The notes under the pieces are model-generated. The model made no database searches and was not told the origin of the DNA. It was given only the letters and a program-made list of their open reading frames with translations. Made by a program: the position numbers and the translations under genes. A DNA stretch of 41,199 nucleotides from Fidelibacterota bacterium. Lineage in GTDB: Bacteria > Fidelibacterota > Marinisomatia > Marinisomatales > TCS56. Where the stretch lies: assembly GCA_043822705.1 (NCBI GenBank), contig JBDRBK010000009.1, forward strand, positions 1-41,199, read 5' to 3'. Positions 34,414-41,198 of this stretch are shown here, in pieces (within the stretch, counting starts at the first letter, position 1; each line of letters begins with the position of its first letter).

Positions 34414-35259
34414 TCAGCGATTCGGTTTCTGGCCTAGGCGGTAGTGACCGGCGATGATCGCGGCGAACAATTTATCGGGCAGTAGCTTTTTCACCAGGAT
34501 CGATATTTTCTGATCCCAGGCGCCTACCCGGTAGCGCAGCCGCGGATTGCGGCAGGCTATAATCCGTTCGATCAAGCGTGCCACCTTATCCGGGTCTTTA
34601 CCGCCGGTTTCATCGGCCTCGATTACTTTCAGGACGGTCGGGAAATCCGGATACAGATCCGGTTCCGAGCGGACGCGCTCAATCCGGCGGCGACTTCCGG
34701 TAAATCCGGTGGAAAAGTCACCCGGTTCGACCAGCACGACCCGAATACCCTGCGGTCGCAACTCCTGGTAGAGCGCTTCCGAGAATCCTTCCAGGGCAAA
34801 TTTGGAGGCGCTGTAAAAACCCTGATATGGCAGACCGATCAGGCCGCCCAGCGAACTAATGTTGATTATCTGACCGCCGGCCTGCTGCCGTAGTACCGGT
34901 ATTACTGCACGACAGACCCGTTGAACACCGAAGAAATTGGTATCGAACTGGGCCTTGGCCTCAGCCGTCGATGTCAACTCCGCCGGACCGCAAATACCAA
35001 ATCCGGCATTATTGATCACCGTGTCCAGTCGTCCCGCCTCGTCCAGGAGGGCGGTGACGGCCGACCGAACCGAGGCGGATGAATTGACGTCCATTTCCAG
35101 CATTTTCACCGCCGGCAAATTACGGTCCGTGTCAACTGAATTGAGCCGCCGGGAACTGCCGTACACACGGTGGCCTGCACGTGCCAGCCGTAGCGCCGTC
35201 GCCCGGCCGATGCCGGAAGAGGCGCCCGTCACCAGGATCACCTTGGGTTTTTTATTCAT
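34414..35259 (-). CDS. Short-chain dehydrogenase/reductase (candidate 3-ketodihydrosphingosine reductase)
   Basis: TGASSGIG, NNAG, ISS, YSASK; starts 16 nt after the SPT-like stop. Confidence 0.92.
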   Translation of the reverse strand: MNKKPKVILVTGASSGIGRATALRLARAGHRVYGSSRRLNSVDTDRNLPAVKMLEMDVNSSASVRSAVTALLDEAGRLDTVINNAGFGICGPAELTSTAEAKAQFDTNFFGVQRVCRAVIPVLRQQAGGQIINISSLGGLIGLPYQGFYSASKFALEGFSEALYQELRPQGIRVVLVEPGDFSTGFTGSRRRIERVRSEPDLYPDFPTVLKVIEADETGGKDPDKVARLIERIIACRNPRLRYRVGAWDQKISILVKKLLPDKLFAAIIAGHYRLGQKPNR

Positions 35260-35275
35260 TTGAAATTACCCGCTA

Positions 35276-36559
35276 TTATTGCCGCAGGGCCGACTGCCAG
35301 GAACCGTTGATGCAACCGTATTTTTTACCGACCCGATGGAATTTATCCAGGCAAAAATCCAGTTGCTCGCGACTGTGGGTGGCCATGTAACTGGTCCGCA
35401 GCAGCGCCCGGCCCTTCGGTACCGCCGGAGCCACGATCGGATTGGTGTACACGCCTTCCGCCAGCAGTTCCTTCCAGATGTTGAAGGTTTTAACATCGGG
35501 TCCGATGATAATCGGGATTACCGGCGAGTCGCTGGTGCCGGTATCGTAACCCATCTGCTGCAGGTTGGCGCGCATATAGTTGGCGTTCTCCCACAGTCGG
35601 GCCCGCCGTTCCGGTTCCCGTTTCAGAATTTCCAGCGCTTTCCTGACCGTGGCCACGTTGACCGGCGGCAGGGCGGCTGTGAAAATCATCGTGCGCGTGT
35701 GGTGCTTGAGGTAATCGACGACAATATCATCGCCGGCGATGAAACCTCCTACTCCGGCCAGGGATTTGCTGAATGTTCCCATGATCAGATCGACTTCGGC
35801 GGACAACCCGAAATGTCCGACGGTACCCTGTCCCTGCGGACCGAATACGCCGATCGAATGGGCCTCGTCGACCATCGTCCGGGCGCCGTGCTGCCGGGCG
35901 ATCTTTACCAGTTGCGGCAGGTCCACGACGTCACCTTCCATGCTGAAAACGCCATCGGTAACCACCAGCCGGGCACGGGTGCGGTCGGCTACGGCCATGA
36001 CCCGGTCCAGGTCCTGCATGTCATTATGACGATAACGGACCACTTCGACCCGGGAAAAGCGGGCGCCATCGACGATCGAGGCATGATTCAATTCATCACT
36101 GAACAGCAAATCTTCGGGTGTCACCGTCGCTGCTATTACTCCCAGATTGACATTGAAGCCAGCGGAAAATACCAGCGCGCGGGCCTTCCCCACGAAAGCC
36201 GCCAGTTCCGCTTCCAATTGCTCGTGCAGGATCAGGTTGCCGTTCAGGAAGCGGCTGCCGGTAAGTCCGGACCCGTACTGCCGTAACGCCTGGACGCCGG
36301 CCTCGATAATTTCCGGATGATTGGTCAATCCCAGGTAATTATTCGAGCCCAGCATGATTTTCCGCTCACCGGCGATCGTTACGTCGGTGGCGTCGGAAAT
36401 GGCGATTTGGGGAAAATATGGATAGTAGCCCAGGGCGCGGGCGGTCTGGGCCCGCGTGAAGGCGTACATCTTGTTGAAAACATCGGGGTACTTCCCGAAA
36501 TACTGCTCCCTAGCAGCATGCATTTTTTGTAAGGCAATATCTTTAAATTCCAGTAACAT
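35276..36559 (-). CDS. Alpha-oxoamine synthase, serine palmitoyltransferase-like
   Basis: YYPYF, MLGSNNYLGL, NHASIVDG, DGVFSMEGD, DEAHS, GTFSKS (PLP lysine). These resemble bacterial SPTs more than BioF. Confidence 0.85.
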   Translation of the reverse strand: MLLEFKDIALQKMHAAREQYFGKYPDVFNKMYAFTRAQTARALGYYPYFPQIAISDATDVTIAGERKIMLGSNNYLGLTNHPEIIEAGVQALRQYGSGLTGSRFLNGNLILHEQLEAELAAFVGKARALVFSAGFNVNLGVIAATVTPEDLLFSDELNHASIVDGARFSRVEVVRYRHNDMQDLDRVMAVADRTRARLVVTDGVFSMEGDVVDLPQLVKIARQHGARTMVDEAHSIGVFGPQGQGTVGHFGLSAEVDLIMGTFSKSLAGVGGFIAGDDIVVDYLKHHTRTMIFTAALPPVNVATVRKALEILKREPERRARLWENANYMRANLQQMGYDTGTSDSPVIPIIIGPDVKTFNIWKELLAEGVYTNPIVAPAVPKGRALLRTSYMATHSREQLDFCLDKFHRVGKKYGCINGSWQSALRQ

Positions 36560-36565
36560 AACGAT

Positions 36566-36615
36566 CTCCCAAAGGTTAGCGATTCGACTCTGATAGCCCG
36601 AAATGCCGTTGGGAG
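36566..36615 (-). promoter_or_regulatory. RBS-sequestering hairpin upstream of the SPT-like gene
   Basis: On the minus strand, CTCCCAA (36615-36609) is complementary to TTGGGAG (36572-36566), which contains the GGGAG RBS 6 nt before the ATG. Confidence 0.6.
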
Positions 36616-36618
36616 GTG

Positions 36619-36996
36619 TTATAATCTTAAAACGACAAAAGCCTGGACTGGTGTAAGTTGTACAAAGCGAAGATGCCGGGGCGCTGATAATTCATTGCGC
36701 AACGGAACCAACGCTGAATAGCTGATATATTCGAAAAATATTTGGCGGCAGAGAAAGTCGTTGATCAGGATCAGCCGCAGGAACTGGGAATAATCGTCGG
36801 GCTGGAAGGAAATAGTCTGGGACGGAATCCACCAGGAGTAGCGCCATCTTAAAAAGTCTTCCAGATGCTGTAAGCGGTGACGATCACTGGTATTCAACAG
36901 CCGCGGATGGCGGGAATGGTAATGCATCCGCAGCAGCCGCAGATAGGCGCGGAATCTTCTCAGATTCATCTTGCCGTATGATCGGTTCATCTGCAT
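36619..36996 (-). CDS. Hypothetical Arg/Leu/aromatic-rich protein (candidate regulatory upstream ORF)
   Basis: Open frame of about 125 codons that fills the space between a predicted promoter and spt. No recognisable family; start uncertain (37020/36996/36990/36969). Confidence 0.5.
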   Translation of the reverse strand: MQMNRSYGKMNLRRFRAYLRLLRMHYHSRHPRLLNTSDRHRLQHLEDFLRWRYSWWIPSQTISFQPDDYSQFLRLILINDFLCRQIFFEYISYSALVPLRNELSAPRHLRFVQLTPVQAFVVLRL

Positions 36997-37003
36997 AGTA
37001 TAT

Positions 37004-37031
37004 ATTATATTGGAAAACATTACAATATCAA
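37004..37031 (-). promoter_or_regulatory. Sigma70-like promoter
   Basis: TTGATA (37031-37026), 16-nt spacer, TATAAT (37009-37004), oriented toward the uORF-spt-SDR unit. Confidence 0.55.
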
Positions 37032-37491
37032 AATAAAACTGTCCTGCCGGCTACTGGTAAATTCCTGGTAGCTCTCGTTGCCGCGCCCTTTATTCACTAC
37101 CGCAGCAGTATTTTTTTCAACCACTTCGTGGCTATCGGTGTGTCGCGGAACCTTGGGCTATTAACAATTAATCCCTTCGCGATTCAAATCATTAGCCCGG
37201 ATTATAACCACTACCAACCAGAACACTCCGATATACCACTATTTGCCGACGGGAACAATGGAATCAAACCGTGGCGACAGGAGACTCCCTGCGGGCTACC
37301 ACAGACCCCTTGGCGGATGTCCGCAAGACCTGTGGACGGCAATAAATCCAAGTGGGCACTGCCACAAGCTCGTTTGTGGAGGGGCACAAACCCTTCTGGG
37401 CCCGGGATTACCTAATCCGGAAGACTGATCGTGATGGCCCGGCTTTTCCGGTTCATTGAGAAAGGAACTGTTGATAGTTTTCAGCGGCAGA

Positions 37492-39075
37492 TTAATGCCC
37501 AAGAGCCTGCGCTAAAACTTCCTTTAATTCCTCAATTACAAATGGTTTTGCCAGGTAATAATTGAATCCTTGTTTCAATAATTCTTCTTTCTGTCCCTGC
37601 ATTGCATAAGCAGTTACCACGATCAATGGCACATTATCGTACTGGTTATTTGCCCGGACGGTTTTCATAAAATCAATTCCCGTCATTCCCCGTTTAAGGG
37701 CGACATCGATCATCATACAGCACACAGATTGATCCTTGAGCAGCGCAAACGCTTCCTCGCTGGTACCGGCGGTCAGGGGCTGAAGACCCAACGCTGTCAC
37801 GCCTTGTTCGATATAACTCAGGTTGTCAGGATGATCTTGAAGAATCAGGAGATTTCTTGTCTGAAGCTTATTCTGGTCAAACACCAAGTCAGATTCCGGT
37901 CGCTCCATCTGGTACTTTTCAATCTTGGCAGCAGATTTATCTTCTTTGTGCTCGGTTACATTGAAATAAAGCGTAAAAGTACTCCCCTTACCCGCTTCAC
38001 TTTCTACCTCTATTCGTCCTTTCATTAATGTCACCAGACGATTAGCAATTGAAAGGCCCAGCCCGGCCCCCTCATATTTTCGCGAAGGACCCTCATCGCC
38101 CTGACGAAACTGGGCGAATAAATAAGGTTTGAATTCCTCTTTGATTCCAATCCCGGTATCAGAGACTGACACGCTGTACTCATCCTTGTTCAGACTGGTT
38201 TGAATAGTAATCTCACCTGCATCGGTATATTTGACGGCGTTCTGCAAGATATTCAATATTGCCTGTTGGAATCGCAGTTTATCAATACTGATCTGAATAT
38301 CGGGCGCAGAATAATTCTCCCTGATTGTCAGTTCCTTGGCCTTGGCGGTAACGAAGATGTCCTGTACCGCTTTTTTCACCAAATCATCGGGAGAATGGGG
38401 CAAAATATTCAAAATAGTAGTATCGGCTTCGATATGCGAGATATCAAGGATATCATCGATTAAATCTTTCAGACGGTAACTATTACGTTTGATGGTATCG
38501 AGATACTTTCTTTGTTTTACTGCATCAATTCCATAATCAATCTGGGTTAACATCAAATCGGTATAACCAATAATAGCCGTCAACGGAGTCCGCACTTCAT
38601 GGGACATATTTCCCAAAAAGACGCTTTTCAGCCGGTCAGCCATTTCGGCTCGTTCACGAGCTTCAATCAATGCTTTTTCACTTTTCTTGCGCTCGATTGC
38701 ATATTGTATTGACCGGGACAATAAGTTACTGTCTAGTTGATCTTTGAATAAATAATCCTGTGCGCCCTCTTTGACCGCTTCTACGGCTAATTTTTCATCT
38801 TCATAGTTACCGGTCAGTACGACAATTGGCACCGAAGATTTCTTTTGCTTAAGCGGTGGCAATCCTTCGAGTCCCAGGGAATCGGGCAGTCCCAAGTCCA
38901 GCAGGATAATATCATAATGGGAATTGCCGAGCTCCTCCAGGGCAGCACGCAGACTTTCGACATGGGTCAATCCAAATTGAATTCCCGATCGTATTTCTTT
39001 TAATCTTTCCTGTAATATTCTGGCATCCGACGGATTATCTTCGACGAGCAGAATATTGATTTGATTATTGTCCAT
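37492..39075 (-). CDS. Hybrid histidine kinase (REC-HisKA-HATPase-REC)
   Basis: LLVEDN..LLDLGLPD; H-box MSHEVRTPL; NAVKYT, DTGIG, GAGLGL; C-terminal receiver (MIDV..VTA..AKP). Confidence 0.95.
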   Translation of the reverse strand: MDNNQINILLVEDNPSDARILQERLKEIRSGIQFGLTHVESLRAALEELGNSHYDIILLDLGLPDSLGLEGLPPLKQKKSSVPIVVLTGNYEDEKLAVEAVKEGAQDYLFKDQLDSNLLSRSIQYAIERKKSEKALIEARERAEMADRLKSVFLGNMSHEVRTPLTAIIGYTDLMLTQIDYGIDAVKQRKYLDTIKRNSYRLKDLIDDILDISHIEADTTILNILPHSPDDLVKKAVQDIFVTAKAKELTIRENYSAPDIQISIDKLRFQQAILNILQNAVKYTDAGEITIQTSLNKDEYSVSVSDTGIGIKEEFKPYLFAQFRQGDEGPSRKYEGAGLGLSIANRLVTLMKGRIEVESEAGKGSTFTLYFNVTEHKEDKSAAKIEKYQMERPESDLVFDQNKLQTRNLLILQDHPDNLSYIEQGVTALGLQPLTAGTSEEAFALLKDQSVCCMMIDVALKRGMTGIDFMKTVRANNQYDNVPLIVVTAYAMQGQKEELLKQGFNYYLAKPFVIEELKEVLAQALGH

Positions 39076-39080
39076 GGTGT

Positions 39081-39527
39081 TTATTCCGATGGTAATTTCA
39101 CTAAAGAAAGCCAGAATTCCTGTATCGTTTTAGCAACCCGGATGAATTCATTGAAATCTACTGGTTTTGTAATGAAGCAATTTGCACCAAGATCATAGGA
39201 CCGCTGAATATCATTTTCATTTTCCGAGGTAGTCAAAACTGCGACAGGGATTCGCCGCAAATTCACACTGGCTTTAATTTCCGCCAATACTTCCAGGCCA
39301 TTTTTCTTGGGCAGATTCAAATCGAGTAATATTATATCCGGTCGTGGAACATCAGTATAATCGCCCCTTTTTTCCAGGAAATCAATCGCCAGCTCACCAT
39401 TTTCCACTACATAAAGTTTGTTGTCAATTTCAGAATTTTTAAAAGATTCAATTGTCAGTCGGGCATCACTGGGATTATCCTCGACCAGTAGGATCTCTAT
39501 CGGTTTCTTAAAACTCCATTCCTTCAT
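39081..39527 (-). CDS. Single-domain response regulator, Rcp1-like
   Basis: LLVEDN, LLDLNLPKKNG, VLTTS, GANCFITKPVDF, EFWL..VKLP. Confidence 0.95.
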   Translation of the reverse strand: MKEWSFKKPIEILLVEDNPSDARLTIESFKNSEIDNKLYVVENGELAIDFLEKRGDYTDVPRPDIILLDLNLPKKNGLEVLAEIKASVNLRRIPVAVLTTSENENDIQRSYDLGANCFITKPVDFNEFIRVAKTIQEFWLSLVKLPSE

Positions 39528-40669
39528 ACGTCAGCTCCCTTGTCTGCTATAGTAAAATAAAATGTCGACCCTTTGTCAGGCTCGGACTCAATCCAGATGC
39601 GACCACCGTGGCGCTCAACAATTCTTTTACAGATGGCCAAGCCGATACCGGTACCGGAATATTCAGATTTAGGATGCAGCCGCTGAAAAATTAGAAAAAT
39701 GCGATCGGCATGTTTTTGATCGATTCCAATACCATTATCCTTTACCGAGAACAGCCATTCTTTGGCTTGTTTCACGGCGCTGACATGAATCTCAGGAGAT
39801 TTATCTTTTGTAAACTTCATGGCATTCGTAATAAGGTTCTGTAGTAACTGGTAAAACTGGGTCGGATCAACCGGTATCTGCGGCAGGGATTCATAGGTTA
39901 TAACGGCTTTAGTTTCTTCAATTGGAAGCTTTAAATTATCGAGAACGGTTTTTAGAATTGTTGAAGTATCAGATTTTTCCAGAGGCTTGCCTTGCCGACC
40001 CACACGCGAGTACGCCAGTAAATCCTTGATCAGTCCCTGCATGCGCTGCGCCCCGCTAACAGCGAAATCGATGAACTCCTGAGCATCGCTATCTAGTTTT
40101 TCTTTATACCGATTTTCAATTAGTTGTAGGTATAGTACAACAGCCCGCAGCGGCTCCTGGAGATCATGGGAAGCGACATAGGCAAATTGCTCCAAATCCG
40201 TATTGGAAAGCTGCAATTGTTTAGCCTGTTCGGCCAATTGTTCCTGGATTCGTTTACGTTCATCCAGTTCGGCACGAATTAGATTTTCCAGGTCGCGCAT
40301 ATGTCCGATAACTATCACAATCAATAGATTGGTCAACATCATGGCTGGTACCACTACCGAACCTTGATATTCCAGCAATTCAAATCCGTTTACTCCAACC
40401 AGATAGTACAGTAGTATAGCCAATGGTAAACTGAAGATTGCACTGATCAATCCGCGCCATAATCCGAGCAGCCAGGCTGACACAATAATTGGCAAAGCCA
40501 TGAATATACCAATTGCCACACCGATATAGGTATATAACGGGAAGAACAGCAGGGAATAGATTATATAACAGATTACCGTTACTGCAATTCGCCCAACCAG
40601 CGAGTCCCGATCGTAGGATCGTAGTAAAGCTTCAAATGTCCTCAATTTACTTTGAATATTTTCTTTCAT
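39524..40669 (-). CDS. Membrane-bound sensor histidine kinase with phytochrome-type kinase core
   Basis: About 4 N-terminal TM helices; LEQFAYVASHDLQEPLR, NAMKF, DNGIG, IFQRLH, GTGIGLA. Confidence 0.95.
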   Translation of the reverse strand: MKENIQSKLRTFEALLRSYDRDSLVGRIAVTVICYIIYSLLFFPLYTYIGVAIGIFMALPIIVSAWLLGLWRGLISAIFSLPLAILLYYLVGVNGFELLEYQGSVVVPAMMLTNLLIVIVIGHMRDLENLIRAELDERKRIQEQLAEQAKQLQLSNTDLEQFAYVASHDLQEPLRAVVLYLQLIENRYKEKLDSDAQEFIDFAVSGAQRMQGLIKDLLAYSRVGRQGKPLEKSDTSTILKTVLDNLKLPIEETKAVITYESLPQIPVDPTQFYQLLQNLITNAMKFTKDKSPEIHVSAVKQAKEWLFSVKDNGIGIDQKHADRIFLIFQRLHPKSEYSGTGIGLAICKRIVERHGGRIWIESEPDKGSTFYFTIADKGADV

Positions 40670-40723
40670 CCTTACGATCCTTTCACAAACCTGAAAACGG
40701 CTTTTATTACCTTGACAGGTGAA

Positions 40724-41113
40724 TCATCTGATAAAACGAAAAACCATTGAGATAACATCGCGTACAGTCAGCGGCTTGTTTAAATAACCATCGGCACCAT
40801 ATCTTATCGCTTGTTCAATTACGTCTTCTTTCAAGTAGGCGGAAATCATTATCACATGTATTTTGGGGTTATGATCCATTATCTTCTTCAAGACTTCAAT
40901 ACCATCATCCCGACCCAGTTTCACGTCCAGAAATATTACTGAATAGGGATTGTTAAGTGCTTTTTTCAGACCTGAATCACCATCATAAGCGACATCGACG
41001 TTGACACCGTAGACGGTGAATAAATCGATGAAAAATTCACAGATATTTACTTCATCGTCGATGACCAGCACTGTTTTTGAATTTGGTTTAGTAGAATTCA
41101 GTTTACTTTTCAT
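40724..41113 (-). CDS. Single-domain response regulator
   Basis: VLVIDDE, IFLDVKL, ISA, LNKP. Start placed at MKSK after AGGAAG. Confidence 0.92.
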   Translation of the reverse strand: MKSKLNSTKPNSKTVLVIDDEVNICEFFIDLFTVYGVNVDVAYDGDSGLKKALNNPYSVIFLDVKLGRDDGIEVLKKIMDHNPKIHVIMISAYLKEDVIEQAIRYGADGYLNKPLTVRDVISMVFRFIR

Positions 41114-41198
41114 TTTGTACTTCCTGCCCATTTTTTGGAATCATTAAATATGAATTGGGATTCATCTCCATTGATGAACTATCAATTATCTTGGGTGT
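41103..41198 (-). CDS. Possible 3' end of an upstream CDS truncated by the window edge
   Basis: Stop-free frame from the edge (..TPKIIDSSSMEMNPNSYLMIPKNGQEVQNEK*) whose stop overlaps the regulator's start region; too short to identify. Confidence 0.35.
   Translation of the reverse strand, partial: TPKIIDSSSMEMNPNSYLMIPKNGQEVQNEK

Follow-up and report, generated by a model that had tools for sequence, protein, structure and literature searches.

A conserved leader reading frame and a Shine-Dalgarno-occluding hairpin as a candidate translational switch ahead of a serine-palmitoyltransferase-like gene in Fidelibacterota

The window analysed here is a stretch of 41,199 nucleotides from a Fidelibacterota bacterium (contig JBDRBK010000009.1), and the features of interest all lie on its minus strand. 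The gene spt (35276..36559) encodes a serine-palmitoyltransferase-like PLP enzyme of 427 amino acids and of the long N-terminal type, for which the best NCBIfam family is NF047600 (502 bits against a cut-off of 640), with other alpha-oxoamine synthase families scoring lower and also under cut-off. It is followed after 16 nt by a gene for a 281-residue 3-ketodihydrosphingosine-reductase-like SDR (kdsr; 34414..35259), best matched by NF049977 at 323 bits (cut-off 400). The nearest solved structure of the spt product is bacterial SPT (3a2b/8guh), at 405 bits compared with 300 for AONS/KBL, and H159, D231 and K265, which we take to be the PLP-site residues, are invariant in 21 SPT orthologues. The presence of a KDSR-like neighbour in genomes G000 and G004 supports assignment as a SPT, condensing serine with acyl-CoA or acyl-ACP, and judged by sequence the gene probably encodes serine palmitoyltransferase, likely the first enzyme of sphingolipid synthesis. 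In G257 no kdsr match was found at E <= 1e-30. Four f29 loci (L062, L063, L064 and L068) have two other genes after spt instead of kdsr, by their motifs presumably a Ppx/GppA-like phosphatase and a DUF47-like phosphate-transport regulator. The phylum has two SPT-like types, long and short, of which the long one is distinguished by about 22 additional, conserved N-terminal residues (M-F-x-E-F-K-D...); both types are present in several genomes of f27 and f28. Upstream, at 37492-41131 of the window, lies a two-component cluster (hybrid kinase, response regulator and sensor kinase) of lower GC content (0.34-0.50); the GC content of the leader region described below is 0.43-0.52, that of spt 0.55-0.65.

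Ahead of spt is a reading frame of 125 amino acids (36619..36996, minus strand, stop codon at 36621-36619) that ends VQAFVVLRL-TAA and has alternative starts at Met3 (36990) and Met10 (36969). An initial annotation of the sequence had placed a promoter, an ATG, this ORF, two hairpin arms and the spt ATG here, and every one of these elements was found in its place. The sigma70-type promoter candidate TTGATA-N16-TATAAT (37004..37031, minus strand; TTGATA 37031-37026, TATAAT 37009-37004) agrees with consensus at 11/12 positions and overlaps a weaker candidate, TTGTAA-N17-TATACT (37025-36997, minus strand). A scan of 4 kb found five promoter-like sites where 3.5 were expected, so the TTGATA/TATAAT site alone is no proof of a promoter. 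The leader in G004 has TTGATT-N17-TATAAT-N6-ATG in the equivalent position. The ATG at 36996 lies 7 nt past the -10 box and lacks a Shine-Dalgarno (SD) sequence, as the suggestion of a possibly leaderless start would have it, but this arrangement is common to the nearest relative only and is not conserved. An SD is present ahead of the leader in three f29 homologues, and the Met3 ATG fits the N-terminal length of the homologues as well as the first ATG does.

The ORF had been regarded as an orphan, and in this respect the annotation was wrong, as a family of homologues exists from which 13 proteins could be aligned. Searching upstream of spt orthologues, as had been proposed, and further afield gave homologues in seven genomes of the phylum, and in all seven the leader stands directly upstream of a serine-palmitoyltransferase-like gene. 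The window's own family, one further family and f29 are represented among these genomes, lineages that amount to three orders. A single-protein word-index search with the leader ORF returned only a self-match, tblastn over spt neighbourhoods found homologues in G004 and G014, and a two-sequence profile added four more leaders, from family f29 in another order. Profile and exhaustive searches contributed more proteins, 12 being listed with partial copies of known ones among them, and one more at 51% identity; two homologue clusters are labelled Candidatus Marinimicrobia or Neomarinimicrobiota, one row also Lentisphaeria, and these labels point to Marinisomatota as the probable phylum. A six-sequence profile matched 8 of 401 sampled genomes, with six true leaders and two weak rows, while the G004 copy, which is broken by a run of 100 N, was detected by the earlier profile only. 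No credible leader match away from spt emerged from the HMM search of the 401 phylum genomes. The weak HMM matches L046 and L048-L050 were rejected on inspection, as they lacked spt or showed stops or other genes, and L057 and L058 (E about 1e-4), which have internal stops, were left out. Metagenome scans yielded no leader locus and then one among 224 candidates (L059, near-identical to G269), a genome-contig scan found the leader in 1 of 23, this being the G014 locus, and a scan of plasmids found none. Counts of leader context rest throughout on seven loci, with proteins P0006, P0008, P0009, P0011, P0013 and P0014 standing outside them.

That the ORF and stem are chance occurrences in an intergenic region is the easiest alternative to discard. 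In its favour could be cited the z score of the window hairpin (-1.08), a codon adaptation that ranks at the 10th percentile in the leader's own genome, and the fact that neither the leader nor the 13 homologues belong to any Pfam or NCBIfam family, there being only two weak Pfam rows (E 0.024 and 0.18). It is refuted, to near certainty, by the 13 homologues, by the fixed context, by a stem that recurs among loci and by a dN/dS of 0.11 between the G257 and G303 homologues (about 0.05 for spt), which places the leader frame under coding selection.

The distribution of the leader is patchy. It was found ahead of 7 of 67 long-type spt genes and of none of six short-type genes, upstream DNA having been read for all the long-type genes found and for 6 of the 37 short-type; at several leaderless loci less than 500 nt of upstream sequence were there to inspect. 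As 60 of the 67 long-type genes do without it the leader must be dispensable, and as only about three independent lineages carry it the locus counts overstate the evidence. On a tree of 33 SPT proteins three changes are needed to account for the genes that have a leader, and a single clade of them is rejected (AU p 0.03), a distribution that fits an old element repeatedly lost, or transfer, the tree being without a root. The genes 3' of spt vary among leader lineages (kdsr, ppx-like or none), and the leader therefore tracks spt alone. Leaderless spt loci of f26 (L074-L086, L088-L090, L100, L102 and L103) have features of their own. Within 230 nt upstream they have a promoter-like TTGTGT...TAGTATAAT and a near-invariant ACACAGGATGG, found within 2 mismatches in 18/19, and the exact CAGGATGG is present at 15/19 of these loci but at 1/54 other spt loci. 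The element ACACAGGATGG, which in our estimation resembles a CsrA/RsmA site, may offer another way of controlling spt at translation.

Full-length leader proteins have 121-126 residues and fall into three parts. The conserved N-terminal domain (residues 12-96; 36709..36963, minus strand) is basic, is predicted to form four helices and shows a column identity of 0.55-0.66 over 12 sequences. No transmembrane segment was found in any of 13 proteins, the maximal 19-residue Kyte-Doolittle mean being 0.20-1.17. AlphaFold2 modelled the leader as four helices (12-96) with a disordered tail (pLDDT 65, pTM 0.59, one of five models above 50), and the model of another member was poor (pLDDT 50.6). Foldseek gave no match for the leader models at E <= 0.001, the best VIA-align Z scores of 6.7 and 5.2 are background for helical models, and an Atlas search gave no usable feature match (TM <0.5); such failed searches do not demonstrate a new fold. 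Net charge is +5 to +15 in 11 full-length leaders, which are rich in Arg and aromatic residues. This composition, together with weak structural matches (Z 4.9 or TM <0.5), antiterminator Q and sigma-like helices among them, would suit a basic RNA- or DNA-binding regulator that acts on the hairpin or on its own transcript to control spt, coupling being secondary. We consider such a regulator improbable, as no fold match rises above background, the loop and lower stem of the hairpin are unconserved in sequence and so offer no obvious binding site, and the stop-anchored motif described next would be left unexplained.

Between the domain and the C-terminus is a variable linker (residues 97-120; 36637..36708, minus strand), predicted to be disordered, with a column identity of 0.19 over 12 sequences. 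The distance it spans is nevertheless nearly constant, with 52-55 residues from the invariant Phe72 to the C-terminus in 12/13 proteins, those in which the FL anchor was found, but 29 residues if counted from where the last predicted helix stops; in Sec/YidC monitoring substrates the spacer between N-module and motif is of more than 30 residues. The protein then ends in VVLRL and the stop codon (36619..36636, minus strand), a candidate arrest motif with the family pattern [LIVA][VI]-L-R-[IL]-stop. The initial annotation had proposed looking for C-terminal conservation, and it is present at the protein level. In an alignment anchored on the stop L(-3) and R(-2) are invariant in 13/13 proteins, with I or L at -1 and V or I at -4 equally in 13/13. 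Column identity is 0.75 across the last five columns (12 sequences) and averages less than 0.3 at positions -40 to -6, and the SPT of the same seven genomes has no comparable C-terminal conservation. Among 22,475 open frames of at least 60 aa in the leader's own genome the motif occurs twice, one occurrence being the leader ORF itself.

Nucleotide identity over the last five codons at the seven loci is 0.42, 0.94 and 0.37 at codon positions 1, 2 and 3, and since second positions are kept while third positions are free, selection on these codons acts at the level of the peptide. Codon usage at the end of the leader has nonetheless some peculiarities. The stop is TAG at 6/7 loci, TAA at one and TGA never, TAG being the rarest stop in the leader's own genome (383/2404), and the bias to TAG or TAA may point to termination control specific to release factor 1. 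The Arg of the motif is encoded by AGA at 5/7 loci, a codon that makes up 3.4% of Arg codons in that genome. Both biases could be taken to mean that the ribosome is slowed by a rare AGA and a UAG stop while on a stem that reaches the first spt codons, LRI being a by-product, and folding does pair the LR codons with the first spt codons at 4/7 loci. Because of this pairing RNA selection may add to the conservation of the LR[IL] motif. As the whole explanation, control by codons and RNA is less probable still than a nucleic-acid-binding regulator, since G004 and G014 use CGT and CGA without such pairing yet retain L-R-[IL], and since third codon positions vary freely.

The stretch between the leader and spt can fold into a hairpin that covers the spt SD. 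The anti-SD arm CTCCCAA (36609..36615, minus strand) begins at the fourth nt after the leader stop, with 'cac' between, and the 3' arm TTGGGAG (36566..36572, minus strand) contains the SD GGGAG and is followed by 'atcgtt' and the ATG at 36559, so that the hairpin, with its anti-SD arm directly after the stop, is as originally reported. Folding gives the window SD a pairing probability of 1.0 and an opening cost of 8.7 kcal/mol, which falls to 3.5 once the footprint of a terminating ribosome is blocked. The further expectations of a fixed spacing and of changes in the stem were both borne out, the distance from leader stop to spt start being 59 nt in the window and 47-59 nt over seven loci, and an SD-occluding stem recurring with different sequences in 7/7. 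In all seven the partners of the SD core GGAG sit 4-11 nt past the leader stop, the flanking pairs differ by lineage, and the sequence of loop and lower stem is not conserved between loci. RNAalifold on a plain MAFFT alignment gave no consensus pair, the arms sliding by up to 4 nt, and Rfam over 36300-37600 returned two chance-level rows only. A close relative, represented by two low-depth metagenome contigs of one study, has one listed change in the spacer, adjoining but outside the 7-bp core, against 23 in the 173 nt that precede the promoter; its contigs leave a gap in mid-ORF.

The cost of opening the SD has a median of 9.4 kcal/mol at the seven leader loci against 3.2 at 60 leaderless spt loci (66 less 6 in which an SD was absent), of which two fall within the leader range. 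Blocking the footprint lowers this cost by 3-9 kcal/mol at the seven loci. A drop as large was seen in 4 of 400 spacer shuffles for the window and in 0-9 of 400 per locus over the seven, while the opening cost itself was equalled by 3-81 of 400 per locus. The stability of the window hairpin is unremarkable (34 of 200 shuffles fold as well), as is mostly the case across leader loci (z +0.44 to -2.7). What lies above chance in the window hairpin is thus its position relative to the ribosome footprint and not its stability. When the model footprint was moved along the last codons, the cost came down to its low level only where the A site stood within 0-2 codons of the stop. A releasable stem of this sort is found in 3 of 106 comparable gene pairs of the leader's own genome, on crude ORF calls. 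At another gene pair of this genome, on G000 contig C106 (plus strand, after 9371), a strong post-stop stem lies over the SD of the next gene, and release by the footprint takes its opening cost from 17.9 to 6.1 kcal/mol.

The reading first offered for this locus was that translation of the ORF gates SPT synthesis, and comparison supports it well, in that the ORF, its C-terminus and the spacing are conserved and the stem recurs. Initiation at spt very probably depends on a ribosome at the end of the leader, that is on translational coupling. Whether the peptide does more than bring the ribosome there is a separate question. The strongest rival takes the leader product for a small SPT partner, an accessory or inhibitory subunit, whose synthesis is matched to that of the enzyme by common RNA-unfolding coupling; the hairpin would then give no more than constitutive coupling, and the LR[IL] tail would be a docking motif or C-terminal degron. 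Eukaryotic SPT has small regulatory subunits, the leader gene is always beside spt, its conserved, predicted folded domain of 85 residues exceeds the needs of a bare leader, and the hydrophobic C-terminus would also suit a degron or docking tail. Coupling by RNA unfolding is moreover known at about +50 nt, in rpmI-rplT (PMC12548453). Against it, 60 long-type SPTs, close relatives in the same family among them, have no leader upstream, and none was found elsewhere in their genomes. Nor would docking or degradation require the core to stay at a nearly constant distance from the stop when the linker between them is saturated. A small partner is on balance unlikely, if less so than any other alternative.

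The gating model can be taken a step further, by analogy with SecM, MifM and CliM, from which we infer stalling and release by pulling. The LR[IL]-stop end of the leader would stall the ribosome at termination, and, once stalled, the ribosome would keep the anti-SD arm from pairing and let another one load on spt. Programmed stalling at the leader stop by LR[IL] is a proposition on which we are evenly divided. The ribosome exit tunnel holds roughly 30-40 residues, so that during a stall the conserved domain would be found immediately beyond its end. There the helical domain could be the sensor that releases the stall, by pulling on the chain once it folds or binds a cue. A termination-type arrest peptide of this kind, comparable to NSP-stop or DGMK-stop and released by a soluble N-domain, has in our view the same even chance as stalling itself. 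The cue, first suggested to be a lipid or envelope signal, might report pathway status as a long-chain base, as an acyl carrier or through a membrane rich in sphingolipid. By SecM-like logic a cue that is abundant when the pathway is sufficient would shut spt off, as the stall would be shortened and the hairpin would close. We favour this negative feedback, under which a shortage of product would turn spt synthesis on. Of all the steps the choice of cue is the weakest, and we put it forward as doubtful. Equally speculative is the claim that the leader represents a new, force-sensing class of arrest peptide. Here a soluble domain with no assigned fold would read sphingolipid-pathway status while emerging from the ribosome and would switch synthesis of the first enzyme of the pathway.

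How bacteria tune sphingolipid synthesis has been little described. Marinisomatota, not previously known as producers, were recently named as abundant carriers of Spt-like proteins and potential marine sphingolipid producers (PMC11334938). No earlier report of leader control of a bacterial spt was found in the open-access literature, subscription papers being mostly outside that search, and the conserved cis-regulatory module ahead of spt is in our judgement real and apparently undescribed. If the stalling model is true, the module would switch the making of a membrane lipid by means of a stalled ribosome, and if its domain also reads pathway status it would be a co-translational bacterial counterpart of the eukaryotic feedback on SPT. 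An LR[IL]-stop behind a soluble domain would be a new arrest motif, extending the monitor design to lipid metabolism. The hypothesis can be addressed without culturing the organism, with reporters and cell-free toeprinting.

SpeFL is a leader ORF of a metabolic gene that stalls at its stop codon. The same holds for TnaC, PepNL and NanCL (PMC11890864), and these four are among the systems closest to the spt leader. PepNL and NanCL are peptides of 14 residues and TnaC detects tryptophan within the tunnel (PMC11890864), whereas the spt leader has 125 residues and is predicted to hold its conserved domain outside the tunnel and to act on an SD hairpin. In E. coli rpmI-rplT coupling operates at a spacing of +52 nt by RNA unfolding (PMC12548453). 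The leader spacing similarly leaves room for a second ribosome and there is likewise an inhibitory structure over the RBS, but plain coupling of this sort would need neither a peptide motif anchored on the stop nor a linker of fixed length.

In the cited work, long arrest peptides use a signal or transmembrane segment to monitor Sec or YidC (PMC10987492 and PMC13183943). The spt leader resembles SecM, MifM, VemP and CliM as presented there, each being a uORF with an N-terminal module, a spacer and a conserved C-terminus, and CliM of C. difficile arrests at termination (PMC13183943). The conserved C-terminus expected of a Sec/YidC monitor is present in the leader. In those systems the next gene has its SD within a stem-loop that a ribosome at the end of the uORF opens; this is predicted for the leader too, and folding models place such a stem-loop, a general mark of arrest peptides, in reach of a stalled ribosome in 7/7 loci. 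By comparison with the same accounts the leader differs in having, judged by hydropathy, no signal or transmembrane segment, its N-module being a predicted soluble helical domain, and in having a lipid-synthesis enzyme as its target and not sec or yidC. A monitoring substrate of Sec or YidC was accordingly rejected as an identity, on the low maximal hydropathy of 13 proteins and because the seven leaders precede an spt-like gene, not secA, secDF or yidC; LudP, too, is Sec-linked, unlike the spt leader.

As regards sequence the C-terminal motif is unrelated to RAPP-like or KYxIW motifs, and membership of the RAPP-like, NSP-stop, NAP-stop, DGMK-stop, KYxIW and LPPP groups was rejected, the leader C-termini reading [LIVA][VI]LR[IL] instead (groups as in PMC10987492). 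The short terminal motifs NSP, NAP and DGMK were seen by toeprinting to arrest at the stop (PMC10987492), so that for them arrest is experimentally shown, whereas for the leader it is predicted. The leader motif differs from them, in the forms there given, in lacking Pro, Gly, Asp and Asn, and the leader has no localisation signal, belongs to another phylum and has another target. It shares with these peptides, as that text presents them, a conserved motif of 3-5 residues right before the stop of a protein of about 100-140 aa.
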